DNA of 32,000 nucleotides from Candidatus Saccharimonadota bacterium. Lineage in GTDB: Bacteria; Patescibacteriota; Saccharimonadia; Saccharimonadales; Saccharimonadaceae. The notes under the pieces are model-generated. The model searched no databases. It saw only the letters and a list, made by a program, of their open reading frames with translations, and was not told the DNA's origin. The DNA lies in the NCBI GenBank assembly GCA_016700015.1, contig CP064995.1:390001-422000 (forward strand), written 5' to 3'. Each line of letters opens with the position of its first letter. Position 1 is the stretch's first letter. Below, in pieces: positions 2,872-21,460 of the stretch. Made by a program: the position numbers and the translations under genes.

Positions 2872-4281
2872 ATGAATTGGCGTACCGTTTTTCGCTCACT
2901 TAAAAACCGCGATATGCAAAAACGACTGGGGATTGTACTCGGACTAATTGTTGCTTTTCGCTTTTTGGCGCATATACCCGTGCCACTGGCTGAGCCGACA
3001 CAGCTCAAAGATATCATCGATAAGGTAGTGGGTAGTAGTGACTTTGGTGGCTTTTTGAACCTCATGAGCGGTGGGGCGCTCAGCCAGATGTCTATTGTGC
3101 TAGTGGGCATGAGCCCATTTATTACCGCCAGTATCATCACCCAGCTACTCACCAAAGCAATTCCCAAGCTAGAAGAACTCCACAAAGATGGTGAATCCGG
3201 CCGACGCAAAATTAACCAATGGACACGCATCATCAGCGTGCCGCTCGCGATTATACAGTCGATTGCCTTCATATATATACTGCGTCAAGGTGTGTTAAGC
3301 GGCGGAACAGCAAGCGCCGTCAGCTCGAGCCCTATCGAATGGGTAGTCGCAGTGGCAGCCATGACTGCCGGGTCGGTATTACTTATGTGGCTGGGCGAAC
3401 TGATTACCGAGCAAGGCATTGGAAATGGTATTTCACTGGTCATTTTCGCCGGCATTGTGAGCCAGTTACCGAATACATTTAGTACTATTATCACGTCACT
3501 TTTTGATACGACTGCCGGGCAACTAAGCGTGTTCGGCTGGTTCAACCTGCCCGTTAACCCAACAAGTTTCTGGGTAGTCCTGGGGATTGCGGCGCTTGGC
3601 CTAGCTGTGCTGTATCTGCTCGTAAAAATCAATGAAGCCCAGCGCATCATTACCGTGAACTACGCCAAGCGCGTGAGCGGCAATAGTGCCTATGGCGGCG
3701 TAAAGAGTATTTTGCCAGTCAAGCTGATTGCTGCCGGCGTGATCCCCGTCATATTTGCGGTAGCATTTCTTAGCCTACCGGCATTTGTTGGCCAGGTGAT
3801 CAAAGCAACGGGTAATAGCGCTAACCTTACACTGGCAGATAACCTTATCAAGTGGTTCCAGGCCCCCACAGCCAGTAGTTTCGTCAATGGTGACTGGGGA
3901 ATTGCTATTTACCCAGTCGCCTACTTCTTGCTTGTGATTCTGTTTACCTATTTTTATACTGGTATTGTGTTCAATAGCAACGAGATTGCCGAAAACTTGC
4001 AAAAACAAGGTGGCTTCATAGAGGGCGTACGGCCAGGACTACAGACCGAGAAGTATTTGGGCCAGACTGTCAATCGGCTGATATTGTTCGGATCATTCGC
4101 GCTTGGCTTTATTGCTGTAATGCCGTTTATTGTCGACTACGTGTTCGCTCAGCTGGGTATAAATGCCGCGAACATATCGATAGGTGGCACTGGGCTGCTG
4201 ATTGTGGTGACGGTCGGCCTCGAGACGCTGCGTCAGGTCAATTCACGCGCACTGATGGTGACATACGACGACTACAAATAG
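2872..4281 (+). CDS. secY: Preprotein translocase subunit SecY
   Basis: About 470-aa polytopic membrane protein in the canonical position after rplO. SecY-like segments (GMSPFITASII.QLL, GELITE.GIGNGISL.IFAGI). ATG 2872 is preferred; TTG 2863 (track start) is the alternative. Confidence 0.95.
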   Translation: MNWRTVFRSLKNRDMQKRLGIVLGLIVAFRFLAHIPVPLAEPTQLKDIIDKVVGSSDFGGFLNLMSGGALSQMSIVLVGMSPFITASIITQLLTKAIPKLEELHKDGESGRRKINQWTRIISVPLAIIQSIAFIYILRQGVLSGGTASAVSSSPIEWVVAVAAMTAGSVLLMWLGELITEQGIGNGISLVIFAGIVSQLPNTFSTIITSLFDTTAGQLSVFGWFNLPVNPTSFWVVLGIAALGLAVLYLLVKINEAQRIITVNYAKRVSGNSAYGGVKSILPVKLIAAGVIPVIFAVAFLSLPAFVGQVIKATGNSANLTLADNLIKWFQAPTASSFVNGDWGIAIYPVAYFLLVILFTYFYTGIVFNSNEIAENLQKQGGFIEGVRPGLQTEKYLGQTVNRLILFGSFALGFIAVMPFIVDYVFAQLGINAANISIGGTGLLIVVTVGLETLRQVNSRALMVTYDDYK

Positions 4282-8101: not shown

Positions 8102-8503
8102 ATGGCGACAACCAAAAATTACGACTACGGCCTCGGACGGCGCAAGAGCGCCACAGCACGCGCACGTTTGGTAAAAGGCAAGGGCGCCGTCACGATTAAT
8201 GACAAGCCCGCCGCCGACTACCTAGGGCAAAACAAAACTCTTCTTGCTGAGATCACCGACCCGCTGGCAATAGTTGGCAAACAGCAAGAATTTGATGTGA
8301 CTGTACGTGTAAGCGGTGGTGGCCTGTCAGGTCAAGTCGACGCTATTAAAATGGCAATCGCCAAAGCTATCACGGTTGGTCATAGTGACCTCCGTAGCAC
8401 GCTCAAAAAGGCCGAGTTCCTGCGCCGCGATCCACGCGAAAAAGAACGCAAGAAGTACGGCCTACGCAGCGCCCGAAAGCGCGAGCAATACTCAAAGCGC
8501 TAA
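8102..8503 (+). CDS. rpsI: 30S ribosomal protein uS9
   Basis: 133 aa. GRRK.A.ARARL..G.G...IN and the C-terminal RRD.RE.ERKK.GL..ARK..QYSKR. Confidence 0.96.
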   Translation: MATTKNYDYGLGRRKSATARARLVKGKGAVTINDKPAADYLGQNKTLLAEITDPLAIVGKQQEFDVTVRVSGGGLSGQVDAIKMAIAKAITVGHSDLRSTLKKAEFLRRDPREKERKKYGLRSARKREQYSKR

Positions 8504-8525
8504 CACAAATCATACTGTGCCGCAC

Positions 8526-8562
8526 AATGAATCTCCGATCGACTCGCGAGATTCATTGTTTT
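8526..8562 (+). terminator. Rho-independent terminator ending the r-protein/rpoA transcription unit
   Basis: Perfect 10-bp stem AATGAATCTC / GAGATTCATT with a 12-nt loop, followed by GTTTTG. Confidence 0.75.
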
Positions 8563-8568
8563 GCGGAG

Positions 8569-8577
8569 TGTTATAAT
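8569..8577 (+). promoter_or_regulatory. Extended -10 promoter TGtTATAAT, 7 nt before ATG 8584 (predicted leaderless mRNA)
   Basis: Perfect TGnTATAAT. There is no SD between it and the ATG. Confidence 0.5.
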
Positions 8578-8583
8578 ACCACT

Positions 8584-9657
8584 ATGGCATTCCCACCAGT
8601 CCCCGACTACTCAAAAACCACCGCGAACAGAGCAGGTCGCGCCTTAGCAAGCGGAAAGCTTACCGGCAAAGACTATAGAGACGCTGCCGAGATAGTCAAT
8701 GCGTGGAGGATATGTCACGCATATCCGCTTAATACGTTCAACGCAACACTTCGCAAGAAGACGACGAAATATAGAGGTGCAATCGTAGCGCAACGACTCA
8801 AACGACTCCCTACAATCATTGATAAGCTTCAGCGGCAACCCAACATGGACTTAACTCGCATGCAGGACATCGGCGGCGTGCGAGCAATTGTTAATAATCT
8901 GAACGAGCTCGCAGAGTTACGACATGATTATGAAGAAAAGGGCCGCTTTTCTCATGAGCTATTTGACGTAGACGACTATATCGGGAGCCCAAAACAGGAT
9001 GGCTACCGAGGAGTCCACCTGATATACAAATACAATAACTCTCTGGCGCGCAATAGTAAGGGCAACCCATCACAGTACAAGGGGCTTTTTATTGAGGTAC
9101 AACTTCGGACTTTATTGCAGCATGAGTGGGCGACTGCGGTCGAGGCAGTGAGCGTAATGCTCGGCCAGCACCTCAAGACGCAACGCGGAAATCGCTCGTG
9201 GCTGGAGTTTTTTGAATATATGTCCTCTATCTTTGCGATTATTGAGAAGTCGCCAGTTCTTAATAAGCACAAAAACCTTACTACTCAACAGATTACAGAC
9301 CAAGCGGCACAAGCAATCAGCGACCTCCACGTGATTGATGCGCTGGGTGGGTGGAAGCGTGCAGCACAGTTGATCGACACACACCATGTTGACAAACACT
9401 ACAACCTCATTGTACTTAACACGAAGGATAAAACTGTCCGGGTGAGACCGTATACCCGCAATAACCTGGTGGCTGCGTCCAAAGAGTACTCGCGCCTTGA
9501 GGAAGAAGCGCTGATTAACCCCGACCTCGACATTGTGCTCGTGGCAGCGGGTGGTATAAAAGAGCTAAAAAAAGCGTATCCAAACTATTTTCTCGATATT
9601 GAAAACTTTATCGAAAAAGTCAAAGACGTTGTCAAAGTTTCAAGGCGTGAGGTATAA
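8584..9657 (+). CDS. RelA/SpoT-homologue: small-alarmone-synthetase / toxSAS-like nucleotide pyrophosphokinase with about 150-aa C-terminal extension
   Basis: Synthetase-fold motifs RLKRLPTIIDKLQR, MQDIGGVRAIV, GYRGVHLIYKY, IEVQLRTLLQHEWA. No HD hydrolase, TGS or ACT regions. The track start 8527 lies inside the terminator hairpin, so ATG 8584 (MAFPPVPDY) is preferred. Confidence 0.85.
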   Translation: MAFPPVPDYSKTTANRAGRALASGKLTGKDYRDAAEIVNAWRICHAYPLNTFNATLRKKTTKYRGAIVAQRLKRLPTIIDKLQRQPNMDLTRMQDIGGVRAIVNNLNELAELRHDYEEKGRFSHELFDVDDYIGSPKQDGYRGVHLIYKYNNSLARNSKGNPSQYKGLFIEVQLRTLLQHEWATAVEAVSVMLGQHLKTQRGNRSWLEFFEYMSSIFAIIEKSPVLNKHKNLTTQQITDQAAQAISDLHVIDALGGWKRAAQLIDTHHVDKHYNLIVLNTKDKTVRVRPYTRNNLVAASKEYSRLEEEALINPDLDIVLVAAGGIKELKKAYPNYFLDIENFIEKVKDVVKVSRREV

Positions 9658-9897
9658 TACCATCAATGACCAGCTCAGATTTTCTCAAGAAGTTAAAGAA
9701 AGCCTACACGCTTAACAAAAAAGCGAGTTAGTTGACCGAGACTCGGTGCCGAGTCGCCCCACGCGTAGATGATTGCATGCCAAGGTTAGTTGACATGTGT
9801 TTAGTGTGTGCAGACGATTATTCGATATGCGGTAATGCCTATGCTTGCATTTGTATGCCGGCCTATACGACAATGGTAGCAAACGAATAGGAGAGGT

Positions 9898-11280
9898 ATG
9901 TCAGAAACGGGCCATTTCAAGGACGCTGGGCTGGATCGCTTGGCTAGAGACGGGAATAATGTTGCTCAATTTGCGAGTTACGATGAAACTGGGAACCCCC
10001 GCTACAGTCGTGTTGTAGGGCTTTCCCCAAACTATCAATTTAGCTCACTGGAAGAGGCAGTTGACTACCTGCTCGCCAACACCACTGAGCACTCGCTCAA
10101 TGTTCGTAGCTTTGCTCCCAATGATGCCAAGAGCAAACCTTTTGATTACGAACTAAAAACTAGTGAAGCGGTACTTGCCAGTCTACGCGCACGCCAAGCC
10201 GAGGGGCTCCACACAATTATCAATGAAACTGTCAGTATTCATGACGGCGGGGTGTCGGGTGTCGTTCATGGCGATGTTGTTGAGTTTGCGCCCCACGACA
10301 CGCCACGCTGCGTCGAGAAGCCAGGAACCGTCGTGCTGAGCCGCAAAATGGGCCGAAGTGTCATTTACCTTGTCTATGGCATTGTGCCGAAGTTTCCCAG
10401 TAGCCCGGAAATCCGACAAGAATTTAGTATTCATCCCCTACGCCATGGATTTCGTAATGAGCATACAATCGTATGGGAAACTGAACATCTAGATGCCTAT
10501 CCGGAGCGTGCAGACACACAATGGCCTAATCGATTTAGTGATATGCTAGGCGATAAAACATTTGGATTGATAGTGGCGAATCAAATTGGCTTACGAGTAC
10601 CCCGCACGACAGTATTCAATCGCACCGTGGCACCATTTACGTTCGGCGATCCGACCGGCAGCCCCGAGCCCTGGATCCGCACAGCCCCCAACCACCAAAC
10701 TCCAGGTAAATACACGACTGAAAGGGGATGGCTTGACCCATTCATGCTAATGCAGCGCGAAGATCCGACTGGTAAAAATATTGCCTCGATTTTGCGCCAA
10801 GATGGTGTCGATGCCAAATTTAGCGGCGCTTGTGCTATGGGCTCAGATGGTGAGCTGATTATTGAAGGCAAGCAGGGTTTTGGTGATAGATTTATGGTTG
10901 GTGAAGATAAAATGAACGATATACCGCCAGAAGTGCAAATGGCAATCGAGGACACCTACTATCAAGCCCAGCGCTCGCTAGGCCCCGTGCGTTTTGAATG
11001 GGTGTACGACGGTAAGCGCACATGGGTCGTGCAACTTCACCGCGGCGTAAGTGTTTCAAGCGGAACTACTATTTACCCTGAGGTTAGTGGTAGTACAGTT
11101 CGCTATATCGGCTATGATACGAGTCGGGGGCTAGAGAGCCTACGCGAAATGATTGGTAGCTCCGAGCCCGGGACAGGCATAATGCTGATCGGTGACGTCG
11201 GTATTACCAGCCACTTCGGCGACGTGCTACGAAAGGCACGCATACCGTCGAAATTATTACGTAAGGTAACTGATGCCTAA
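9898..11280 (+). CDS. PEP-synthase/PPDK-like phosphotransferase: unknown N-domain + ATP-grasp (PPDK_N-like) + C-terminal phosphohistidine swivel motif
   Basis: 460 aa with an AGGAGAGG RBS. LGDKTFGLIVANQIGLRVPRTTVF, GKQGFGDRFMVGE and VRFEWVYDGKRTWVVQLHRG resemble the PEP/pyruvate-binding ATP-grasp domain. GDVGITSHFGDVLRKARIPS resembles the GG.TSH.AI.AR..GIP swivel-His motif (His codon 11212-11214). Confidence 0.6.
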   Translation: MSETGHFKDAGLDRLARDGNNVAQFASYDETGNPRYSRVVGLSPNYQFSSLEEAVDYLLANTTEHSLNVRSFAPNDAKSKPFDYELKTSEAVLASLRARQAEGLHTIINETVSIHDGGVSGVVHGDVVEFAPHDTPRCVEKPGTVVLSRKMGRSVIYLVYGIVPKFPSSPEIRQEFSIHPLRHGFRNEHTIVWETEHLDAYPERADTQWPNRFSDMLGDKTFGLIVANQIGLRVPRTTVFNRTVAPFTFGDPTGSPEPWIRTAPNHQTPGKYTTERGWLDPFMLMQREDPTGKNIASILRQDGVDAKFSGACAMGSDGELIIEGKQGFGDRFMVGEDKMNDIPPEVQMAIEDTYYQAQRSLGPVRFEWVYDGKRTWVVQLHRGVSVSSGTTIYPEVSGSTVRYIGYDTSRGLESLREMIGSSEPGTGIMLIGDVGITSHFGDVLRKARIPSKLLRKVTDA

Positions 11281-12055
11281 CCACATTGATACTGTACTGC
11301 GCTCAACACTGGCAGAATGCACCGTTTCATGGTCAGAAGCCAAAACCAGCCCGCTTGACGCCTACGTGGACTTTCAGTGTCGACTTGGAAGCCTGGCGAC
11401 GCGGTATGAAGACTATATTAGTACCGCGATTACAAGTGGTGGGTACCGACGTGATTCTACGCTCAAGTATCGTGAAGTTGTTGCAAAAAACACCGACTAC
11501 GCGCTGATGATTGCCGATGAGTTCCATCGTAGAGGGCTTACTGATGCTGAGCTTACGCTTGATGCTGTTGCTCTAGGCAAAGTCGCCGGCTGGAAACAAA
11601 GCGATTTTTTGACATTCTTTTTAACCGCAATGGCGCGTCCCGTCGTACCTGGCCTTAGCTCACCAGAGTATCGCCACTTACTCGACATATATAATCACCC
11701 GCAGACCTACGACAAAGCAACCTTTGACGATGAGTCACTTAGGAATGATGTACGCCTACCACACTACCAGGCATTCGCTACAGAATATTGGCAGCGCACA
11801 AAAGTACTCGATGTTGCACCAATCGATAGATCAATCCGCGTAGCTGACTGGAACCAGTCGCTAGGCAGTCAAGCAGAAGAGCATTTTGCGCGACTTATCG
11901 GCATTCGCGTCGCCACGCCACAAATTATTACGTCGAGCTGTGATTTTAGCTTGCTAGACTTACCTCATGATCTTTCTACGAGTGTAAAAGAGTTACGGGA
12001 ACTCGGCGCCCATATCATTGCTCCGCCCGAAGCTTCAAAACTGGTATTAACATAA
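11273..12055 (+). CDS. Hypothetical 260-aa protein, translationally coupled to the phosphotransferase
   Basis: ATG 11273 overlaps the upstream stop by 8 nt (ATGCCTAA). Long ORF with no family recognised. Confidence 0.6.
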   Translation: MPNHIDTVLRSTLAECTVSWSEAKTSPLDAYVDFQCRLGSLATRYEDYISTAITSGGYRRDSTLKYREVVAKNTDYALMIADEFHRRGLTDAELTLDAVALGKVAGWKQSDFLTFFLTAMARPVVPGLSSPEYRHLLDIYNHPQTYDKATFDDESLRNDVRLPHYQAFATEYWQRTKVLDVAPIDRSIRVADWNQSLGSQAEEHFARLIGIRVATPQIITSSCDFSLLDLPHDLSTSVKELRELGAHIIAPPEASKLVLT

Positions 12056-12093
12056 ATTTTCATTACTATAATTTATCCAGGGTGCCCATAAGG

Positions 12094-12102
12094 TGCTACA
12101 CT
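12094..12102 (+). promoter_or_regulatory. Extended -10-like box TGcTACACT, 7 nt before ATG 12109
   Basis: Same geometry as at 8569 and 25147; the hexamer is weaker. A TATAAT box is also present at 12067-12072. Confidence 0.3.
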
Positions 12103-12108
12103 ATCTTT

Positions 12109-12813
12109 ATGAAAATACTCATATTGGCCGCTACACATGGCAATGAACTCTTAGGACCCAAGCTTATTGAATACATGTTACGTAAACACCCGAGTCTCTT
12201 TGAGTATATTGAGTTTATCGTTGCAAACCCTCGCGCGCTTGCAAAACGTATTAGGTATACCGAATCAGACTTGAACCGTAGTTATGGGCTAGGAACTGAT
12301 ACTTATGAGCAGCGACGTGCAAATGACATCGAGGCGCATATCAAAGCCACGCAACCAGATATTGTTCTTGATATGCACACAACCGCCTGCGTACAGCCGC
12401 CGATTATGATCGTAGGTAACATAACCAATGCTACTGTTCGAGCATACTTAAGAAACTGTCACATCTCTACCGTATTACAAGTAAAGCCGCTACACGATAT
12501 CGCGACTATTACACCAAGCATTGTTGCGTACGAGATTATGAACCGTGATGTAACGACCAATGTTTTAGAGCAAATTTGCGAAGATTTAAATAAATTTTTG
12601 AATAACAAAGTCGAAAAAAAAGTCATTAATCTTTACCGTATGTCCGATAAAATTTATAAACGAGACATTACTGCAGCGCAGGCAAAAACATTTAAAAATT
12701 TCGAGATGAATGAATTGGGATTTATCCCAATTATGACAGGGAATAATTCATACAAAAAACAAACCGATTACCTAGGATTTAAATCAGCCGAACCGATCGA
12801 TCTGGTTCTCTAA
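12109..12813 (+). CDS. Succinylglutamate desuccinylase/aspartoacylase (AstE/AspA) family zinc deacylase
   Basis: MKILILAATHGNE, NPRA...R....DLNR, YE.RRA and DMHTT match the family metal- and substrate-binding motifs. ATG 12109 is preferred over GTG 12082. Confidence 0.75.
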   Translation: MKILILAATHGNELLGPKLIEYMLRKHPSLFEYIEFIVANPRALAKRIRYTESDLNRSYGLGTDTYEQRRANDIEAHIKATQPDIVLDMHTTACVQPPIMIVGNITNATVRAYLRNCHISTVLQVKPLHDIATITPSIVAYEIMNRDVTTNVLEQICEDLNKFLNNKVEKKVINLYRMSDKIYKRDITAAQAKTFKNFEMNELGFIPIMTGNNSYKKQTDYLGFKSAEPIDLVL

Positions 12814-13757
12814 CATCTAATTTCTGGATAAAGATCTGCGGTATTTTTTAGGGCAGAAAGAAGCGCCCATTCAAATCGCTCACGGTGGATCGACGTAACC
12901 ACAGTAATATTTGGGTGACGCTCGCTATATTTTCGTCGATCTGCTACTGACATCCCAAATGTATGCTCACCCTTTGTCTCGATAACTATGTCCATCTTCA
13001 CCGTCTTAAATGCTTTTTGATCCAAAAAATAAAAAGCGGCCAATGCATCATAAACAAGTGCGGCTTTCACTTTCTCATGCTTTGAAATGCCAGCGATAAA
13101 ATGTCGCATCATTTTATGTAGGTTAGCATATAGTGCTTTGCCCTTGAGTGAATCAAAAAGATCAAGCTGGATTTTAATTACGTTACATGGATCAAGAGGA
13201 ACTAATACCTTTGGACAATCGCTTCGTATTACAATATCTGCCGCCTCCGGGTCAACAAAAAAATTAAATTCAGCCACTCGATTTTTATTGCCAGGTGATT
13301 CAATCGCGCCACCCATAATAACTAGCTCTTTTATATTATTTTCAATACCTGGGTTTGATTTTAGTAGTTGAGCAACATTTGTTAATGGGCCGATAGTTAA
13401 GATACTAACCTCACCTGGATAGAGATTTAGATAGTGCTTCATTATAGACACTGCATCCTTGGACAGTGTATAGATAGTATTACTAACGTCTAAACCATCA
13501 ATCCCGCTATCGCCATGAACTTCAGCGGTGACTAACTTACGCCTAAGCGGCTTATCGGCACCCGAATGAATCGATATTTTTGAACCAACGAGGTCAAGTA
13601 CTGCCTGCGCATTACGTGTTACCTTTTCGATCGTAGCGTTACCAGCAACTGTTGTGATAGTTAATATATCAAATTGATTTGAACAGATCAGCAAGAGCAT
13701 GGCAAGGGCATCGTCGTGGCCGGCATCAGTATCAATAATAATTTTTTGCTTTCCCAT
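12810..13757 (-). CDS. Inosine/uridine-preferring nucleoside hydrolase family protein
   Basis: 315 aa. N-terminal IIIDTDAGHDDALAMLLL (DTD.G.DD..A signature). AAGGAG RBS; 1-nt gap to the upstream gene. Confidence 0.85.
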   Translation of the reverse strand: MGKQKIIIDTDAGHDDALAMLLLICSNQFDILTITTVAGNATIEKVTRNAQAVLDLVGSKISIHSGADKPLRRKLVTAEVHGDSGIDGLDVSNTIYTLSKDAVSIMKHYLNLYPGEVSILTIGPLTNVAQLLKSNPGIENNIKELVIMGGAIESPGNKNRVAEFNFFVDPEAADIVIRSDCPKVLVPLDPCNVIKIQLDLFDSLKGKALYANLHKMMRHFIAGISKHEKVKAALVYDALAAFYFLDQKAFKTVKMDIVIETKGEHTFGMSVADRRKYSERHPNITVVTSIHRERFEWALLSALKNTADLYPEIRC

Positions 13758-13758
13758 G

Positions 13759-14484
13759 CTACTCCTTTTCCTTCAGTATATCAGCAAATAATTCTTCTAC
13801 TGTATCGGCATAAAAATATTCTTTTTGCGATCTACCGTGCGCACCAATCAAGCACCCAAGTGCGCCTCTTTGCACCGCAGGCTCAATATCTACAGAGGGT
13901 TTATCACCAATAACAAGGGTTTTGTTAAGTGGTATCTTCATTTTTTTTGTAATAATTTCGAATATTCTTCCATCTCGCGTGGCCTTCGGCGGGTGGGCAT
14001 CGCTTTCATATCCAATCAACATGGCAAAATCATCTATTTTATAGTTTGACGCAAGTAATATTCGTCCACTTAACGATGTTGGGCTGCTTGTGAGCGCTAC
14101 AGTCTTAATATGTTTTTTCGCTAGCGCTCTTATAAGGTCTGAAACATGATGTTGATCGCTAAAATATCCTTTAGGATCCAGCTGCGTCATATGCTGATGA
14201 AGAATTGTGAAATTTGGAATCAACGGTTTCTGGCGGGGTAGGTATATGCTGATGTCGCCGGTAAATAGTGCTTGCTCAGCCCCAACCCCATGCTGACGGA
14301 ACTGATTTGCAACCTTTTCAGCTTTCGGTATTGAAATGTGAAAGTACTCTGCAATTGCTCGTTCGACTGCAAGCCCATATTGTTTATAGAAGTCTTTTCC
14401 AGTTGCACGAACAAGTGTGTCATCAACATCGCATATGATGAGCTCTACGTCTTTAAAAGCATTGGAATGATATTGGTGCCCCAC
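13759..14484 (-). CDS. HAD-superfamily phosphatase (5'-nucleotidase-like)
   Basis: 241 aa. Motif I LIICDVDDTLV (D.D.T), motif II TALTSS, motif IV VIGDKPSVDI. GTG start, 2-nt gap to the upstream gene. Confidence 0.8.
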   Translation of the reverse strand: MGHQYHSNAFKDVELIICDVDDTLVRATGKDFYKQYGLAVERAIAEYFHISIPKAEKVANQFRQHGVGAEQALFTGDISIYLPRQKPLIPNFTILHQHMTQLDPKGYFSDQHHVSDLIRALAKKHIKTVALTSSPTSLSGRILLASNYKIDDFAMLIGYESDAHPPKATRDGRIFEIITKKMKIPLNKTLVIGDKPSVDIEPAVQRGALGCLIGAHGRSQKEYFYADTVEELFADILKEKE

Positions 14485-14486
14485 GC

Positions 14487-16004
14487 TTATCCGCCCGCAA
14501 CATTGTTTGTTGCCGTCACATACTCTTTCATCTTTGCAGTGGCCGCTCCTGTATGGATAATCTCTAGGGCCTCACGTGTAGCCGCTCGTAGATAATCAGC
14601 ATTCACACGCCGCGTATCTGCATGTAGGGCATCGACACGATCTAGATATTTTCTTGTAAATATACCAAGACCGGCGGTCATAGCTAAATACATTGCTTTC
14701 GCCTCATCCCTGCCAGCAAGTGCATCTCGATTCGCGGCAAGGATAGCATCGACTTCATTTGGAACCATAAGACCATGCATTGTCATCACCGACAGTTGCC
14801 CTTCGGTAAAAAAGTCTGTCGGCCTTATCTCAAAAGTTCCTGCAAGTTCGCCGCCTCGCATAAACGCTGCCACTGTCGCATAGGGTGGTGGAGCAACCTC
14901 ATCGATCGCCACACTTTCACGTGCTTCAGGAGAATGGTAGTACGATTTTGGATCAAACATGTCAGGGTGAGCAACCTCTCGATCCGTTCCAAAGAATGCC
15001 ACACTATTATCGTACGTTTGAAATTTGCGTTTTGAGAGTATCTCAAGCGCCGAGATCACAGTGGCGGGATGGATTTTCTCGTTTACGCCGATGAAGCCAT
15101 TAGCAACTGTCTCAGGCGTTAGTGTATATGCGAGAGGACCAATGATATGGTTGATGGTTTCACCTTTAAGTCGATGTGAAAGTGTATGAAGCGTTCTCGT
15201 GTTGTGGCAACTCGACATCATTAGTCCCACTTCATCCAGAAGTTTTTGAAATGCTTCGGGATTATGAAAATCCGAGCGTGCACCAAGCGCCTCGACAGCA
15301 GACTGACCTGCTACTTTTGAGGTGTTTGGGTATGAGTGATGTTTGTGCGTTGCTCCATCGACTGCCAAGATTGCAGAAGACAATGTTGATAAACTAAAAA
15401 GTTTGGAGGTTTTACCAGTACGGCCATATCCTTTATCGCCACCCATACCGCCGAGAGCAATAACAGGTCGTTGGCTCTCTGTTCGTACAACCGTGTCTAA
15501 ATCAACTGTTGCGGCAACAACTCCAGCTATTTCTTCGGGAAGAAGACCGACGTACCCTTCTTTGGAAGACATGCCACTTAAAAGACTCGTTGCTTGCATG
15601 AGCTGCGTCTCACGTACATCTGACCGCCGAGTGGTACTAGAGGGAATCCAAAGCGGATATGCCGGTACTGGCGCATATTCTAATATTGATGAACGCACTG
15701 CTCTATTGAGCGACATGACGACAAAGGCAATGAGGCTATATGCTTCTTCGAAAGTAAGCTCGCCGCCATGCTTTAATTTTGCATCAATCCCATAGAATCC
15801 TGCCTCATAAAGCGGCGCAAGTTCATAGCTTTTTACTGCTTTTACTCGCTTGTCGAGACGTGAAAAGTAATCAGCACTTTGTGCAAGCTTATTAAGTGAG
15901 CTTGAGCAATCGATTTCCTCTTTATACCCCAGACCGTCAGTAATTTCTTGCTGGTAAGGGTAACCACTTAGATGAATCGTCGGGATGTTTCTATTTGCTT
16001 TCAT
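14487..16004 (-). CDS. TrpD-family (glycosyl transferase family 3) phosphoribosyltransferase-like protein with about 180-aa N-terminal extension
   Basis: LGGMGGDKG...FSLSTLSSAILAVDGATHKHHSYPNTSKVAGQSAVEALG parallels TrpD GTGGDG..FNISTA.A...A..G..VAKHGNR..SS.SGSADVLEALG. HRLKGETINHIIGPLAYTL parallels R.ELG.RT.FN.LGPL.NP. ATG 16004 (AAAGGAAA RBS) is preferred; ATG 16022 is the alternative. Confidence 0.7.
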   Translation of the reverse strand: MKANRNIPTIHLSGYPYQQEITDGLGYKEEIDCSSSLNKLAQSADYFSRLDKRVKAVKSYELAPLYEAGFYGIDAKLKHGGELTFEEAYSLIAFVVMSLNRAVRSSILEYAPVPAYPLWIPSSTTRRSDVRETQLMQATSLLSGMSSKEGYVGLLPEEIAGVVAATVDLDTVVRTESQRPVIALGGMGGDKGYGRTGKTSKLFSLSTLSSAILAVDGATHKHHSYPNTSKVAGQSAVEALGARSDFHNPEAFQKLLDEVGLMMSSCHNTRTLHTLSHRLKGETINHIIGPLAYTLTPETVANGFIGVNEKIHPATVISALEILSKRKFQTYDNSVAFFGTDREVAHPDMFDPKSYYHSPEARESVAIDEVAPPPYATVAAFMRGGELAGTFEIRPTDFFTEGQLSVMTMHGLMVPNEVDAILAANRDALAGRDEAKAMYLAMTAGLGIFTRKYLDRVDALHADTRRVNADYLRAATREALEIIHTGAATAKMKEYVTATNNVAGG

Positions 16005-17178
16005 TGCTAGTTTTCCTTTCATTAGTTCTTTTGTGCCGAATAGTATTTTGCGAATGTTTGATATCTTGGATGAATGAGTTGAGTTGTTCTTTTGTTACGC
16101 CCGGCATACAAATCACGTGGCTAACACCTCCGTAGGTAGCCAGTTGCCATTTATGAATAATCTCCTTAGGCGGCTGCTTTATCACTACAGTAAATGCAGC
16201 TTCATTTTTCCACGCTGGCCAGCCGATACAACGGAGTTCGGTATGTAAATAACGTGCTAATTCCATCGAATTGATCGCTCGTTTGCGCAGGCCATCGGTT
16301 CCAAGTTTTTTAATGGTGTACCAAAGCATGATTGGAGTATGGCCATTTCGTGATCCGGAAATTGTCGAATCTGGCGTGCCGGTATACAGTGCGCTACGAA
16401 CCACCTTGTCGCGATAACTTTTACGCGTAATCACCACTCCGCTCGGCATCGGGCATCCGATAAATTTGTGTCCGCTGATACTGATCGCATCTGCACCGTC
16501 AGCAAAATCAAACGGATGATGGGGAATTGCAAAGGCTGTATAGACGCCTGCCAGCGCTGCATCACAGTGCACAAATGATGCATCATCAAAGCCGAGGTCA
16601 TCGAGGATGTGCTGAATAATGTACACATTGTCCTTTGCCTCGGACATTGTCGTTCCAATCGTCGCGACGACAATCACCTGAGTAGCGCCGGATTTTATTA
16701 TATTTTTCTTGAGACTGCTATAGTCCATCTCGCCCGACTCTTCAGATGCGACCGCAATTCCTTGCATGCCGAGTATACCGATATTCTTCGGTATACTATA
16801 GTGAGCGCTATTACTATAAAATACCGGCGCTTCAGGATATAGTTCGCGGGCAACATAAAGCGAATACAAATTTCCTTCGGTACCACCATTTGTAACATAA
16901 CCCCATCGATCAGATTTGGGAGCATGAAACAAATCAGCAAAAAAATCGACAACTTCACGTTCTAGTCGTTTGGAATGATTTGCATGGAGCGGACTCACAT
17001 ACGGATCGCCAACATTATTGAGTAAATATTGGAAGAACGGTAGTAGCTCAGAATAATCGAAATCGACCGAACCCGGAAATCCTATAAAATATGGATAATC
17101 CTTGCGGATCTCCGCCATAAATGCTGTCAAAGTATGGTGATCGGCACGGTTCAATTGGCTTTCTTTTCGCTTAATCAC
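15991..17178 (-). CDS. Group II PLP-dependent decarboxylase, histidine-decarboxylase type
   Basis: 395 aa. Collinear with Gram-negative HDC motifs: GFPGS.DFDY, WGYVTNGGTEGN, GEMDY, ATIGTT, HCDAALAG, PFDFADGADAISISGHKFIGCPMPSGVV (PLP lysine), ISGSRNGHTP. GTG start after a GAGAGG RBS. Confidence 0.75.
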   Translation of the reverse strand: MIKRKESQLNRADHHTLTAFMAEIRKDYPYFIGFPGSVDFDYSELLPFFQYLLNNVGDPYVSPLHANHSKRLEREVVDFFADLFHAPKSDRWGYVTNGGTEGNLYSLYVARELYPEAPVFYSNSAHYSIPKNIGILGMQGIAVASEESGEMDYSSLKKNIIKSGATQVIVVATIGTTMSEAKDNVYIIQHILDDLGFDDASFVHCDAALAGVYTAFAIPHHPFDFADGADAISISGHKFIGCPMPSGVVITRKSYRDKVVRSALYTGTPDSTISGSRNGHTPIMLWYTIKKLGTDGLRKRAINSMELARYLHTELRCIGWPAWKNEAAFTVVIKQPPKEIIHKWQLATYGGVSHVICMPGVTKEQLNSFIQDIKHSQNTIRHKRTNERKTSNESK

Positions 17179-17241
17179 ATAATACCTCTCTTATCACAAT
17201 ATCCCCATCGGTTGACGGGGAGCAATAAATAGCACTCACAA

Positions 17242-17646
17242 CTACCAACCAGTACTCTTTGGGCTATTATGCCTGGGAATAGTATAATAAGAAATCTTGT
17301 CTTCCGGTTCGGACTCGGGCTGATTGCTTTGGGCACGGTGTTGCATATTCCGTGCCAGTCTCATAAGATCCAAAAAAATGTCCAACAGGTCCTCATTACT
17401 AATTGGACCTTCGTTTTCGGCCATAATATGCTCAAGTACCTCGTTCTCACGCCGAATATTAAAGATAGGTCTTTTCTCTGCTAATTTCAAAGCGCCAGCC
17501 GCAAGCGCTAGTTGCATACGACGGTTGAGCAGCTTTACGAGCTCAGAGTCAACCTTGTCAATCTCTTCGCGTACTGCAAGAATATCTGCCGCACCCTTCG
17601 CAACTTCTGTCATAGACTTATACTCCCAATATAATACTGAGTACAT
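17242..17646 (-). CDS. AroQ-class (type II) chorismate mutase-like protein
   Basis: LAVREEIDKVDSELVKLLNRRMQLA...K......I....RE.EVL matches the CM type II helix pattern. ATG 17646 (AAGGAAG RBS) or ATG 17613 (GGGAG RBS). The track start 17739 is unlikely. Confidence 0.65.
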   Translation of the reverse strand: MYSVLYWEYKSMTEVAKGAADILAVREEIDKVDSELVKLLNRRMQLALAAGALKLAEKRPIFNIRRENEVLEHIMAENEGPISNEDLLDIFLDLMRLARNMQHRAQSNQPESEPEDKISYYTIPRHNSPKSTGW

Positions 17647-17775
17647 GCTACCACTTCCTTTAGTCTGTATGCAAGAGCCATCACCATGAACAGCATAGTA
17701 ATATGCACAACGACGACTGCTCGTAATCCAGGAGGGCATTTGTTATGATAGGAAAGACGAGGAGGCATGCGCTTT

Positions 17776-19985: not shown

Positions 19986-20793
19986 TCCCAGGACTGAGCT
20001 TACTATTATTCAACTGCGCAAATACTTACCCCACGGTGTCTTATTGTCTGGCGAGCAGGGAGTTGGGCTTGAACAGGCAGCTCTCGACATCGCAGATAGA
20101 CAGCTAGCCGAGGTCATTCGTCCAACAACGTCGGAGGGAGTGGTTGATGGCGCTAAGGGCGTCATTCGTATCGAACAAATACGTTCACTTTATGAAGCAA
20201 CAAGAGGTAAGTCAAAACATAGACGCATATATATCATTACGAAGGCAGAGACAATGGGAGAGCCAGCTCAGAATGCATTGTTAAAACTACTTGAAGAGCC
20301 GACTTTGCACGCACATTTTATCTTGACATCTCATCATCCAATGAAGCTGCTACCGACAATCCTCTCGAGGCTGCAAAAGGTACGCATAGATACGCTCGAA
20401 GGTGATCAATCAAAGCAACTTCTGATGGAGCGTGGCATAACTGACAGTACACTAATGCAACAACTACTATTCTTAGCGAACGGTAGGCCAGCTCTGCTTG
20501 ATGAGCTAGCAAGCAATACTAAACTGCGTAGCGAAAGAATCAAATACATGTCCGATGCTCGTACCTTCTTGCAGGGAACGGTAGCAGACAGGCTACGCAT
20601 CCTACACGAGTACGGAGGCGACCGCACCCAATCACTACAGCTTATCGAGTCAGCACTTGCAATCATTAAGCACAGTCTGCATCAGAAACCATCAGTATCT
20701 CAGCTGCAACTAGCCAACTCTTTGGTGTCAGCATATGATAGTATCGCCGCGAATGGTTCAGCCAAGCTGAACTTAATGCTGATCGTGGTATAA
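19969..20793 (+). CDS. holB: DNA polymerase III delta-prime subunit
   Basis: HGVLLSGEQGVG (degenerate P-loop), AQNALLKLLEEP, LPTILSRLQ (SRC-type motif). ATG 19969 is preferred over the track start 19918. Confidence 0.8.
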   Translation: MSLPYNPRTELTIIQLRKYLPHGVLLSGEQGVGLEQAALDIADRQLAEVIRPTTSEGVVDGAKGVIRIEQIRSLYEATRGKSKHRRIYIITKAETMGEPAQNALLKLLEEPTLHAHFILTSHHPMKLLPTILSRLQKVRIDTLEGDQSKQLLMERGITDSTLMQQLLFLANGRPALLDELASNTKLRSERIKYMSDARTFLQGTVADRLRILHEYGGDRTQSLQLIESALAIIKHSLHQKPSVSQLQLANSLVSAYDSIAANGSAKLNLMLIVV

Positions 20794-20803
20794 TAGGTAT
20801 CAT

Positions 20804-21460
20804 ATGTTCGGTTTACTCCTCGTGATGGCATTCGGTGTATGGGCAATCTGGCGTCAACAGACAATAGATGAGGCCGCCGCCGATTTGCCGCAGAAGATAT
20901 CAAGCAAAATTGATAAGCTATGGGATATCGCTCAAGAATCACTACGTGATCGTAAATATTTGCGCGCAGAGAAAGCGCTTCTTACTATACTACGCGTCGA
21001 TGAAAAAAATGCTACTGCATATAATCGATTAGGTATTCTGTACGCCAAGCAACAGGCGTATAGCGACGCAATCGAGTGCTTTGAGATTGCACAGAGTCTT
21101 GAGCCAAGTGCCAGTAGTCTGCACAATGTTGGGCTGATCTATTTCGAAACCGCTCATTATGAAAAGGCCGCTCTTGCGTTTGAGCAAGCGCTTAGTATGG
21201 AAGATACCCTCGCTTCACGCCATATCGCCTATGCTAAAGTGCAAGAAAAACTAGGTCATAGCAGTAAAATGATCGAATCGCTTGAGAAAGCTGTTGCAAT
21301 CGAGCCAAGTGTGCAAAGTTATCATATTCTCGCCGATGCGTATAGCAGGGTTGGCGAAGAAGAGAAGGCGCAGGATTTGCGTGAGCAGATCGCAAAAGCT
21401 GTCAACTCTAAAACTCCTCCCGCCAAGACCGTCCAGCAAGTCCGCAAGGTTCAGATGTAA
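20804..21460 (+). CDS. Membrane-anchored TPR-repeat protein
   Basis: N-terminal hydrophobic helix MFGLLLVMAFGVWAIW, then at least 3 TPR units (AYNRLGILYAKQQAYSDAIECFE.A..L.P...). Confidence 0.75.
   Translation: MFGLLLVMAFGVWAIWRQQTIDEAAADLPQKISSKIDKLWDIAQESLRDRKYLRAEKALLTILRVDEKNATAYNRLGILYAKQQAYSDAIECFEIAQSLEPSASSLHNVGLIYFETAHYEKAALAFEQALSMEDTLASRHIAYAKVQEKLGHSSKMIESLEKAVAIEPSVQSYHILADAYSRVGEEEKAQDLREQIAKAVNSKTPPAKTVQQVRKVQM

Follow-up and report, generated by a model that had tools for sequence, protein, structure and literature searches.

A CapRel-type fused toxSAS gene and an adjoining conserved 21-codon gene behind rpsI in a Saccharibacterial genome

The window, i.e. the whole stretch of 32,000 nucleotides of chromosomal DNA that was analysed, contains a RelA/SpoT-homologue gene directly behind the ribosomal-protein operon that ends with rpsI. 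A second, very short gene follows it on the same strand. The features of the locus are itemized below.

8520..8566, + strand: terminator-like hairpin of the rpsI/r-protein operon, stem CAATGAATCTC/GAGATTCATTG followed by TTTT; left border of the module
8569..8577, + strand: extended -10 box TGtTATAAT of the CapRel gene (from the sequence and its recurrence in the clade)
8584..9657, + strand: CapRel-type fused toxSAS gene, 357 aa (Pfam, PADLOC, PHROG, homology to CapRel SJ46, AF2, Foldseek)
8764..9162, + strand: toxSYNTH catalytic core, residues 61–193 (Pfam RelA_SpoT)
+ strand: key toxSYNTH residues R71, K73, K81, R84, D95, R100, G-loop Y141, E171 and Q173 (invariance in homologues, match to SJ46)
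9367..9546, + strand: pseudo-zinc-finger-like sensor/antitoxin domain (pseudo-ZFD), residues 262–321 (AF2 secondary structure)
9547..9591, + strand: switch helix and YXXY autoinhibition motif IKELKKAYPNYF, with YPNY at 9577–9588 (identity to SJ46, invariance)
9629..9658, + strand: micro-gene promoter TTGTCA, 18 nt, TATAAT (11/12 matches), overlapping the 3′ end and stop codon of CapRel
9666..9731, + strand: conserved 21-codon gene MTSSDFLKKLKKAYTLNKKAS, probably leaderless; putative lineage-specific partner of CapRel
9740..9755, + strand: short GC hairpin past the micro-gene, lacking a U-tract; weak terminator candidate

The open reading frame runs from 8527 to 9657 and would encode 376 aa if counted from its first ATG, while the ATG at 8584 gives the product of 357 aa. 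A start at 8527 was ruled out; this ATG lies inside the stem of the rpsI terminator, and both homologues and profiles begin at 8584. The family profiles start near the methionine encoded there (PADLOC position 5 at residue 25 and PHROG position 9 at residue 26, in the 376-aa numbering), and the start ATG-GCA-TTC-CCA is common to five relatives, with the DNA upstream of it unalignable. The 357-aa product is identical to NCBI P0001, 'RelA/SpoT domain-containing protein [Candidatus Saccharibacteria bacterium]', located on a contig of 1,011,181 bp; the host is thus a Saccharibacterium, as the original prediction implied. With coordinates computed as 8584+3(n-1), the motifs reported earlier are all correctly placed (DIGGVRAIV at 8866–8892, YRGVHLIY at 9004–9027, EVQLRTLLQHEWA at 9094–9132, and YPNY). 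Pfam reports RelA_SpoT alone (9.2e-16), in agreement with the description of a protein that has no hydrolase, TGS or ACT parts.

The window protein is a CapRel-type fused toxSAS and not a housekeeping synthetase of the RelP/RelQ type. It matches CapRel SJ46 (PDB 7ZTB and 9ERV) with E = 1.6e-38 over residues 28–360 versus 15–361, with 32% identity over the whole chain. The PADLOC PDC-S33 HMM is matched over its full length at 1.5e-117 (residues 25–370 versus profile positions 5–343 of 349), and the PHROG 4773 profile, also over its full length, at 2e-106. In the sequence search RelQ reaches only 2e-8 and FaRel2 0.33. The window CapRel is a new member of an already known family. The fused toxin–antitoxin or defence-type RSH of CapRel kind that had been proposed for this gene is borne out by these full-length homologies, together with the identity of the active-site and YXXY residues.

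A housekeeping small alarmone synthetase, making (p)ppGpp in the manner of RelP, RelQ or RelV and carrying the C-terminal extension as a regulatory or oligomerisation appendage, is highly improbable. In favour of it are an intact RelA_SpoT domain, a core fold of nucleotidyltransferase type and a G-loop tyrosine in common with these enzymes, and significant though weaker matches to the RelQ and RelP structures (sequence E ~2e-8, fold E ~2.5e-8). The match to CapRel is however better by 30 orders of magnitude and extends over the full length. Placement among the RelP/RelQ/RelV-type enzymes, which the original prediction had named as evidence against itself, was not obtained; the NCBIfam RelQ/YjbM equivalog scores 44 bits, far below its curated cut-off of 320. 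Unlike RelQ, RelP and RelV, the window protein carries an additional helical region at its N-terminus and an autoinhibitory domain at its C-terminus. This domain, the YXXY motif and every scaffold residue known from the autoinhibited toxin are conserved. No features of tetramer-forming SAS were seen in it.

Ten residues of SJ46 (A77, R79, R116, Y155, V338, L339, A341, A351, Y352 and Y355) are catalytic or autoinhibitory by mutation (PMC9712102). All ten are identical in the window protein. Eight are invariant among 109 homologues, and the remaining two, R100 and L319, are kept in at least 90% of them. R71 and R100 align with the adenine-coordinating pair R79 and R116 of SJ46. R71, K73, K81, D95, E171 and Q173 are invariant among the 109 homologues, and the spacing of the ATP-site residues is that of FaRel2. 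The G-loop tyrosine Y141, within DGYRGVHL, is likewise invariant and aligns with Y155 of SJ46, which is required for activity (PMC9712102). The YPNY tetrad comprises Y332-P-N-Y335. Its scaffold residues A69, V318, L319, A321 and A331 are identical to their SJ46 counterparts, KKAYPNYF is the same as SJ46 residues 349–356, and A331, Y332, P333 and N334 are invariant among the homologues. A tRNA substrate, toxicity and a phage trigger we infer by homology with SJ46, a protein of 32% identity. The N-terminal domain would accordingly be toxic and neutralised by the C-terminal one, and the enzyme would pyrophosphorylate the 3′ CCA ends of tRNA in place of making (pp)pApp or (p)ppGpp. Activation by a bound phage protein, with phage defence as the outcome, is suggested only indirectly, by the hypervariable sensor domain, by the location of some relatives in toxin–antitoxin or defence-like islands, and by 240 relatives on IMG/VR viral contigs.

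The AlphaFold (AF2) model has a pLDDT of 90.3 and a pTM of 0.87. The comparison with CapRel SJ46 that had been suggested for such a model returns CapRel as the best fold match; in the PDB, Foldseek ranks CapRel chains at the top (E 3.5e-21 over 360 columns, TM 0.66–0.68 to 7ztb). The pseudo-ZFD comprises strands 273–279, 284–290 and 315–321 and helix 292–311, and a short separate helix (333–336) lies on YPNY. The model superimposes on the open CapRel crystal form with an rmsd of 10 Å; its open or closed state was judged solely from this value and the short YPNY helix. Conservation along the protein is lowest in the sensor domain, with a regional identity of 0.59 compared with 0.80 for the core.

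CapRel SJ46, from Salmonella phage SJ46 and E. coli prophages, is of similar length (373 aa, versus 357 here). It has the same order of domains, i.e. toxSYNTH, anchor helices, pseudo-ZFD, YXXY switch and C-terminal helix, and its sensor domain is also the most variable part. While SJ46 is prophage-borne, the window gene is chromosomal, lies beside a ribosomal-protein operon and is partly vertically inherited, and it probably differs also in being expressed from a leaderless mRNA.

The latter suggestion is based upon the arrangement of the promoter. The hairpin that follows rpsI has a folding energy of -29.4 kcal/mol (z = -5.78; 0/200 shuffles equally stable), confirming that the gene lies right behind the terminator of the r-protein operon. 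The perfect TGtTATAAT noted earlier is present at its given position, the A of the CapRel ATG being 7 nt past its last T, and no Shine–Dalgarno sequence was found between the two. The + strand of the window has four TGNTATAAT boxes, each of them directly upstream of a gene start. A -10-like box located 5–11 nt before the CapRel ATG occurs in 13/20 loci of the clade compared with 10/176 other loci (Fisher p = 9e-10). Recurrence of the box at this distance with no Shine–Dalgarno sequence supports a CapRel mRNA that is probably leaderless, as had been proposed.

Past the stop codon of CapRel the original prediction had noted only a 21-codon ORF. The ORF is present, at 9666–9731, but it is not noise, being conserved, separately promoted and found together with the CapRel lineage. 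Its promoter is kept in five relatives, and in 17/20 loci a -10 box matching at 5/6 positions or better lies 7–13 nt ahead of the micro-gene ATG. The micro-gene thus shows the geometry expected of a leaderless mRNA, a -10 box ~7 nt before the AUG and no Shine–Dalgarno sequence, as CapRel does. In the core of the micro-gene the differences between five close relatives are distributed 12/8/83 over codon positions 1/2/3, with 77 synonymous and 11 non-synonymous codon differences. By this pattern of substitution the ORF is conserved at the level of protein. An HMM of the peptide was searched against 84,805 small segments, and the top 18 all lie 63–101 nt past a CapRel stop codon. The micro-gene is also present in every locus of the clade examined after the HMM was made (L245, L247, L090, L085, L253 and L255). 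Altogether, more than 20 Saccharibacterial loci were examined, among them copies located at different genomic sites, and all have it behind CapRel; ~180 loci of other lineages or phages all lack it. Its length is 17–26 codons. The frame relative to CapRel, obtained by arithmetic on the two start coordinates, is 0, 1 or 2 depending on the locus, which excludes fusion of the peptide to CapRel by readthrough or frameshift.

The peptide is strongly basic, with a charge of +3 to +9 in 19/20 examples. This charge is its only robust feature; the hydrophobic moment is not consistently above that of shuffled sequences, and the claim of an amphipathic helix was rejected. Seven of the peptides were run against Pfam with E allowed to reach 10, and none gave a match. 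An IMG/VR scan with the back-translated core FLKKLKKAY gave five matches, all of which are chance occurrences within unrelated ORFs.

The ORF might alternatively have no connection with CapRel, encoding a hitch-hiking basic protein or reflecting a signal at the level of DNA or RNA, for instance a promoter, a terminator or an sRNA. The lack of a known family for the peptide would accord with this, as would the promoter and hairpin signals in the same region. Yet the differences are dominated by the third codon position, ATG and stop codon are retained at every locus, no known RNA family was found by Rfam in 8400–10000, and the linkage to CapRel holds across differing genomic contexts. Nor is the ORF a leader of the downstream gene, since that gene is on the opposite strand in L082 and L084. 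We consider an unconnected ORF unlikely. The combination of CapRel and micro-gene is a new two-gene module, and our best guess is that the 21-residue peptide is a trans-acting regulator of CapRel.

Compared with the bipartite toxSAS systems (FaRel2:ATfaRel2, PhRel:ATphRel and the unfused actinobacterial CapRel), the module likewise consists of a toxSYNTH toxin and a small downstream gene. Known toxSAS antitoxins act at the ATP donor site by means of a YXXY 3-10 helix (PMC11782079). In the bipartite systems the antitoxin is a separate gene, whereas in the window protein the pseudo-ZFD/YXXY antitoxin is fused in cis. The product of the micro-gene is unlike the bipartite antitoxins; it has ~21 residues, no YXXY and at most one tyrosine, which is not conserved in the family. 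It is too short for a pseudo-ZFD, and is therefore not an antitoxin of ATfaRel2 or ATphRel type. No pseudo-ZFD/YXXY antitoxin was found encoded by the gene adjoining CapRel, the product of which has 17–26 residues and no Pfam match. SJ46-like and other non-Saccharibacterial loci do not have the 21-codon gene, in contrast to CapRel of the window type. The window protein falls within the clusters of both PADLOC PDC-S33, a candidate single-gene defence system, and PHROG 4773. These are unnamed or candidate families with single-gene definitions and no mechanism assigned to them, whereas the window module has two genes, and no mention of PDC-S33 was found in the literature searched.

CapRel follows rpsI in the window and in L001, L084 and L245, so that its position is retained. 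Close relatives of the protein are located at other genomic sites, and in L247 and L255 they lie within toxin–antitoxin or defence-like islands. In L001 the cassette is flanked by duplicated rpsI 3′ ends; a search of the window for a remnant of such a duplication found none. The rpsI...TrpRS synteny is retained without CapRel in L257, and the gene is therefore dispensable. The adjoining genes of 460 and 260 aa were rejected as parts of the system. They are not beside CapRel in L084, L245, L081 or L082, and they occur without it in L257. The percentage identities to L084 are RpoA 87, RpsI 80, TrpRS 81, RluD 68 and CapRel 77, while those to L245 are 71, 74, 68, 52 and 57 respectively. Peptide-bearing CapRels are monophyletic in one NJ tree; a second tree adds one long-branch sequence, and the bootstraps for the micro-gene-bearing clade are weak (8–25 of 100). 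From the trees a single origin of this clade is plausible at most.

The CapRel at the rpsI site has diverged in step with housekeeping genes. Such stability is unusual in a defence gene and would fit a domesticated role equally. The protein could then be a resident regulator in these ~1-Mb episymbiont genomes and not, or not only, an anti-phage sensor, throttling translation by tRNA pyrophosphorylation when cued from within the cell, and the micro-peptide would be its physiological regulator. The shared position behind rpsI is in keeping with this, and the core of the peptide is conserved like the catalytic core, unlike the variable sensor. Against it, the sensor domain remains the fastest-evolving part, related copies lie in the defence-like islands and at unrelated loci, and L257 does without the gene. 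Domestication appears improbable to us.

We consider it likely that the locus encodes a single-chain CapRel defence toxSAS, carried as an accessory cassette and accompanied by a micro-gene whose product acts in trans. The cassette would have been inserted behind the rpsI terminator, and the extended -10 promoter of CapRel itself would give rise to a leaderless mRNA. The C-terminal pseudo-ZFD would hold the enzyme off in cis, with YPNY lodged between R71 and R100 so as to plug the adenine site. [quoted passage not shown] The 21-codon ORF would be the second gene of the cassette, expressed from its own promoter, probably also leaderless, and its strongly basic peptide would act as the trans partner of CapRel, most likely as a negative regulator or threshold setter. 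A more specific version is put forward only tentatively, and we would sooner expect it to be wrong than right. Here the peptide would be a third component of CapRel, i.e. a strongly expressed and probably short-lived trans regulator that sits on a conserved surface of the enzyme and gates or sets its activation. If so, its site could possibly be that at which the cis switch helix 'LKKAY-PNY' docks. The best match of the peptide HMM on CapRel falls on the switch helix in 63/192 CapRel sequences, which is the commonest location, but with scores of at most 6.7 bits that are not significant. A resemblance of the peptide to the LKKAY of the cis helix is thus a lead only, not statistically supported.

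CapRel is a well-characterized bacterial immune protein that senses phage proteins directly, and Saccharibacteria are ultrasmall episymbionts whose defence and stress signalling have hardly been explored. An apparently intact CapRel in this group widens the range of the family beyond the phyla of the founding paper, which do not include the Patescibacteria/CPR phylum of the host (PMC9712102). In some genomes it has been held at one site beside the ribosomal-protein operon across genus- or family-level divergence. The 21-codon gene is a new element, of a kind that standard gene callers and surveys of toxSAS flanking genes would miss. If the peptide does regulate CapRel it would add a new layer of control to fused toxin–antitoxin immunity. 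It would then be the first peptide-regulated toxSAS, a module of toxin, cis-antitoxin and micro-peptide that serves defence or growth control and is peculiar to Saccharibacteria. The compact two-gene module is directly testable, as some carriers (Nanosynbacter) belong to cultivable and genetically tractable lineages. At the far end of the module, hairpins stronger than that at 9740..9755 occur at the same position in L081 and L084.

The CapRel gene lies 3′ of a ribosomal protein operon and is followed by a 21-codon open reading frame, termed here the micro-gene. The principal features are listed below, in the coordinates of the window.

8527-9657, + strand: CapRel open reading frame (376 aa), with a second in-frame ATG at 8584 that gives the 357-aa product
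8569-8577, + strand: extended −10 box TGtTATAAT, with the A of the CapRel ATG 7 nt after the box
9666-9731, + strand: micro-gene
9898-11280, + strand: gene for a 460-aa 'hypothetical protein'
11273-12055, + strand: gene for a 260-aa protein, with an 8-nt overlap across the stop of the 460-aa gene

The 357-aa product is 100% identical to P0001, a database entry named 'RelA/SpoT domain-containing protein [Candidatus Saccharibacteria bacterium]' and encoded on a contig of 1,011,181 bp. The RSH motif coordinates given in the original prediction are all correct, and Pfam returns the RelA_SpoT domain alone, in keeping with the stated lack of hydrolase, TGS and ACT parts. The top match among all PDB sequences is CapRel SJ46, the fused toxSAS anti-phage protein of Salmonella phage SJ46 (7ztb/9erv; E = 1.6e-38, residues 28-360 of the 376-aa ORF against 15-361 of 373). 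It is ahead by 30 orders of magnitude, the next matches being RelQ/RelP (~1e-8) and FaRel2 (0.33). The PADLOC candidate defence family PDC-S33 (1.5e-117) and PHROG 4773 (2e-106) both match over the full length. A housekeeping SAS, the placement that the original prediction had set against its own, is rejected; the NCBIfam RelQ equivalog scores 44 bits with a cut-off of 320.

In SJ46 mutational analysis has assigned R79 and R116 to coordination of the ATP adenine, Y155 as the G-loop tyrosine required for activity, and Y352 and Y355 as the YXXY plug, while the autoinhibited state is scaffolded by A77, V338, L339, A341 and A351, whose alteration leads to constitutive toxicity (Zhang et al., PMC9712102). 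Counted through the PDB-sequence alignment, all ten are identical here (A69, R71, R100, Y141, V318, L319, A321, A331, Y332 and Y335); eight are invariant in 109 homologues, with R100 and L319 at least 90% conserved. The FaRel2 residues that contact the ATP triphosphate, Mg and adenine (R64, K66, S70, K74, R77, D90, G93, R95, E145 and Q147; PMC11782079) have counterparts at identical spacing in R71, K73, T77, K81, R84, D95, G98, R100, E171 and Q173. Conservation is lowest in the sensor domain, as it is in SJ46, with an identity of 0.59 among five close relatives and 0.30 against distant homologues, compared with 0.80 and 0.51 for the catalytic core.

An AlphaFold2 model from the 109-sequence alignment (pLDDT 90.3, pTM 0.87) places helices C-terminal to the catalytic core, followed by strands at 273-279 and 284-290, a helix at 292-311 and a strand at 315-321. 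This strand-strand-helix-strand arrangement is the pseudo-zinc-finger topology described for SJ46, and a short separate helix falls exactly on YPNY (333-336). In a Foldseek search of the PDB, CapRel chains rank first (E 3.5e-21 over 360 aligned columns, TM 0.66-0.68) and RelP/RelQ cores second (~1e-8). The rmsd from the open-state SJ46 crystal form is 10 Å, and the model would fit a closed state. Because it agrees with the fused CapRel subfamily (toxSAS toxin-antitoxin/defence) in every sequence and fold criterion that could be applied, the window protein is very probably a CapRel-family fused toxSAS, as had been proposed. By analogy with SJ46, it is more likely than not to serve in defence with a phage protein as the trigger.

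The start of CapRel is placed at 8584, since alignments to the PADLOC and PHROG profiles start only a few residues from this methionine, Met1 is kept in at least 90% of the 109 homologues, and five close relatives share ATG-GCA-TTC-CCA here, upstream of which their DNA is unalignable. The ATG at 8527 is rejected because it falls within a strong hairpin stem 3′ of rpsI (−29.4 kcal/mol, z = −5.8, 0/200 shuffles equally stable), which also bears out the predicted location behind the ribosomal protein terminator. The box at 8569-8577 is where the original prediction put it, and there is no Shine-Dalgarno sequence between it and the ATG; many CapRel homologues of other phyla have one of GGAG type. 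All four copies of TGNTATAAT on the + strand of the window are located upstream of gene starts, and are therefore taken as genuine promoters here. Among 20 non-redundant Saccharibacterial loci bearing the micro-gene (the clade), 13 have a −10-like hexamer (5/6 matches or better) whose 3′ end is 5-11 nt upstream of the CapRel ATG; elsewhere this holds for 10 of 176 loci (Fisher p = 9e-10). The prediction of a leaderless CapRel mRNA, made originally as probable, is well supported by these sequence comparisons. Similar boxes are found 6-10 nt before the ATG of the window genes at 17739 (− strand), 20804, 25163 and 26341; for example, TGNTATAAT at 20786 precedes the ATG at 20804 (box-to-start region 20786-20806). 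Leaderless transcripts appear common in this genome.

The DNA 3′ of CapRel was aligned for the window and four relatives, two of them at different chromosomal sites. The conserved block comprises TTGTCA or TTGTGA within the last CapRel codons, a spacer of 17-18 nt, an invariant TATAAT overlapping the CapRel stop, and an ATG 7-12 nt further 3′ that opens the 21-codon ORF; similarity ends past its stop codon. The peptides are listed below, together with two from loci collected later.

Micro-peptides encoded 3′ of CapRel in the window and in related loci of other genomes
Window: MTSSDFLKKLKKAYTLNKKAS
L001: MSNSVFLRKLKKAYTLNKKAV
L081: MTGSQFLKKLKKAYALNKKAS
L082: MSKAAFLKKLKKAYELNKKAR
L084: MSNSVFLKKLKKAYTLNKKAS
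L253/L254: MSNSDFLRKLRRVYKQNKKTA
L255: MTRNKFLQQLRRAAKASEKPLKK

In micro-gene codons 6-20 the pairwise nucleotide differences number 12, 8 and 83 at codon positions 1, 2 and 3, and 77 synonymous codon differences compare with 11 non-synonymous. Such a pattern points to selection for a protein rather than for an RNA or DNA signal. An Rfam scan of the region gave no family match. A profile built from 11 peptides was scored against 84,805 stop-to-stop segments (12-90 codons) from 248 loci; the 18 best matches all end 63-101 nt past a CapRel stop on the same strand, and all clade loci added once the profile existed carry the micro-gene (L245, L247, L090, L085, L253/L254 and L255). Of 20 members, 17 have a −10 box (5/6 matches or better) whose 3′ end is 7-13 nt upstream of the micro-gene ATG. 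Access by readthrough or frameshifting is excluded because the frame relative to CapRel, calculated from start coordinates, is 0, 1 or 2 depending on the locus. Nor is the micro-gene a leader peptide of the downstream gene, since in L082 and L084 that gene is on the opposite strand; hairpins follow the micro-gene in L081 and L084. The original prediction recorded the 21-codon ORF and went no further; it is conserved, separately promoted and linked to CapRel. It is probably translated and functionally tied to CapRel.

The micro-gene is absent from ~180 loci of other phyla, from 80 viral contigs, and from L002 and L018, Saccharibacterial CapRel homologues outside the clade. The L002 homologue (Saccharimonadales, 49% identical) is followed by an unrelated 45-codon ORF (9115-9252; MADKPKDTKPADEPVKEF...). 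In a neighbour-joining tree of 201 homologues the 20 micro-gene-bearing CapRels form an exclusive clade. A single origin is at most likely, because in a second tree one long-branch sequence joins them and deep-node bootstrap is weak (8-25/100). The CapRels of the clade have few changes of their own, namely Y31, H229 and the loss of a proline after the conserved glycine preceding the switch helix.

The micro-peptide is strongly basic (net charge +3 to +9 in 19/20), with the common pattern M-x4-[FIL]-x-K-[KR]-[LIVM]-[KRQ]-x-[AILS]-[YLIV]-x-x-N-K. Among close relatives its core is as conserved as the CapRel catalytic core and far above the sensor domain, which speaks for contact with a conserved surface or host component rather than with the variable trigger-binding face. 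The module is not a bipartite toxSAS pair, because the adjacent gene is much too short and encodes no YXXY. With the cis autoinhibition apparatus of CapRel intact, the micro-peptide is an addition and not a replacement. Antitoxins are usually made in excess. The micro-gene promoter is near consensus at both hexamers and that of CapRel has an extended −10 only, which suggests that the micro-peptide is likewise produced in excess. In the subgroup of the window LKKAY is common to the micro-peptide and the CapRel switch helix (IKELKKAYPNYF), and this helix is the commonest site matched in CapRel by the micro-peptide profile (63/192 sequences), with insignificant scores. The tyrosine of LKKAY is not conserved across the micro-peptide family, and possible mimicry of the switch helix is a lead only. 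A scan of viral contigs for the micro-peptide core gave chance matches only. Our preferred but tentative reading is that the micro-peptide, probably a labile one, might act in trans on CapRel as a negative regulator or to set its threshold. Alternatively it could be an activating cofactor of CapRel, or an unrelated small protein that hitch-hikes with it; any specific role is at best a doubtful assignment.

The CapRel protein itself is already annotated generically and covered by PDC-S33 and PHROG 4773. What is new is the micro-gene, which is conserved and has a promoter of its own, and the two-promoter, probably leaderless layout of the module, and the interest rests mainly on the micro-gene and the unusual host lineage. 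The CapRel family comprises 3,040 clusters at E ≤ 1e-5, with at least 582 matches in species-representative genomes of many phyla including archaea, and relatives on 240 IMG/VR viral contigs. Cyanobacteria, Actinobacteria, Proteobacteria, Spirochaetes, Bacteroidetes and Firmicutes have been given as CapRel phyla (PMC9712102); our literature search found no paper tying CapRel to Saccharibacteria or CPR.

In the window the rpoA-rplQ-rplM-rpsI operon precedes CapRel, and the stretch on its other side differs among related genomes. It is likewise 3′ of rpsI in L084 and L245, with different genes between CapRel and TrpRS/RluD. Other close relatives (52-73% identical) are flanked by unrelated genes or lie in islands. 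In L257 the order rpsI...AstE-like, TrpRS, RluD is kept without CapRel. The CapRel-micro-gene cassette of L001 (77% identical) stands between two rpsI 3′ ends ~1.4 kb apart.

L001 1893-1949 and 3305-3361: duplicated rpsI 3′ end, 57 nt with 95% identity
L001 2079-2107 and 3476-3504: copies of the rpsI terminator hairpin

This duplication looks like the scar of an insertion or of Campbell-type recombination; no such rpsI repeat was found in the window. The L001 contig is labelled Acidobacteriota, and is probably a mis-binned Saccharibacterium given that its rpoA-rplQ-rplM-rpsI genes are 75-87% identical to those of the window. From its absence in syntenic L257, the relatives at unrelated loci and the insertion signature in L001, the CapRel gene is accessory. 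The right border of the module lies between 9732 and ~9838, because the ~60 nt immediately upstream of the gene at 9898 can be aligned with L257. Identities to the window for RpoA, RpsI, TrpRS, RluD and CapRel are 87, 80, 81, 68 and 77% in L084, and 71, 74, 68, 52 and 57% in L245; since CapRel has diverged in step with the housekeeping genes, the rpsI-site copy has been long retained in some lineages. Directly 3′ of rpsI, L257 encodes a 333-aa HTH_38 protein (3059-4060, − strand), a domain typical of IS30-type transposases; in this lineage mobile DNA may repeatedly insert in the 3′ flank of rpsI. Elsewhere, copies of CapRel with the micro-gene occur within a ParE/Phd and YafQ-type toxin-antitoxin cluster (L247, 1-2005) and adjoining a Schlafen-like/ResIII helicase gene (L255, 4182-6044, − strand), surroundings resembling defence or toxin-antitoxin islands.

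The 460-aa gene is rejected as part of the CapRel module, being absent beside CapRel elsewhere and present without it in L257. As L257 has the same pair (458 and 261 aa), the 460-aa and 260-aa genes may form an operon. Neither protein has a match in Pfam, NCBIfam, PADLOC, PHROGs or PDB sequences. The 460-aa family, unannotated and remarkably conserved, comprises at least 2,841 clusters with identities of 50-88% across phyla (Longimicrobium, cyanobacteria, Saccharibacteria), and in the cyanobacterium Aphanothece sacrum (L256) the homologue lies among toxin-antitoxin genes. Its AF2 model (pLDDT 94) shows an ATP-grasp fold, with likeness to ATP-grasp ligases and, across longer stretches, to rifampin phosphotransferase and pyruvate phosphate dikinase; this fits GITSHFGD near the C-terminus, which looks like a phosphohistidine-swivel motif. 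The protein is possibly a phosphotransferase, as yet uncharacterised, that belongs to mobile or defence islands. In the window a minus-strand block encoding a nucleoside hydrolase, a HAD hydrolase, a glycosyltransferase-family-3-like protein, a PLP-dependent decarboxylase and chorismate mutase separates the AstE-like gene from TrpRS. Since in L084 and L257 the AstE-like gene is followed directly by TrpRS, the block has the appearance of a second insertion into that variable interval. The GC content of 12000-17740 is 0.40-0.45, against ~0.50 in the flanks.
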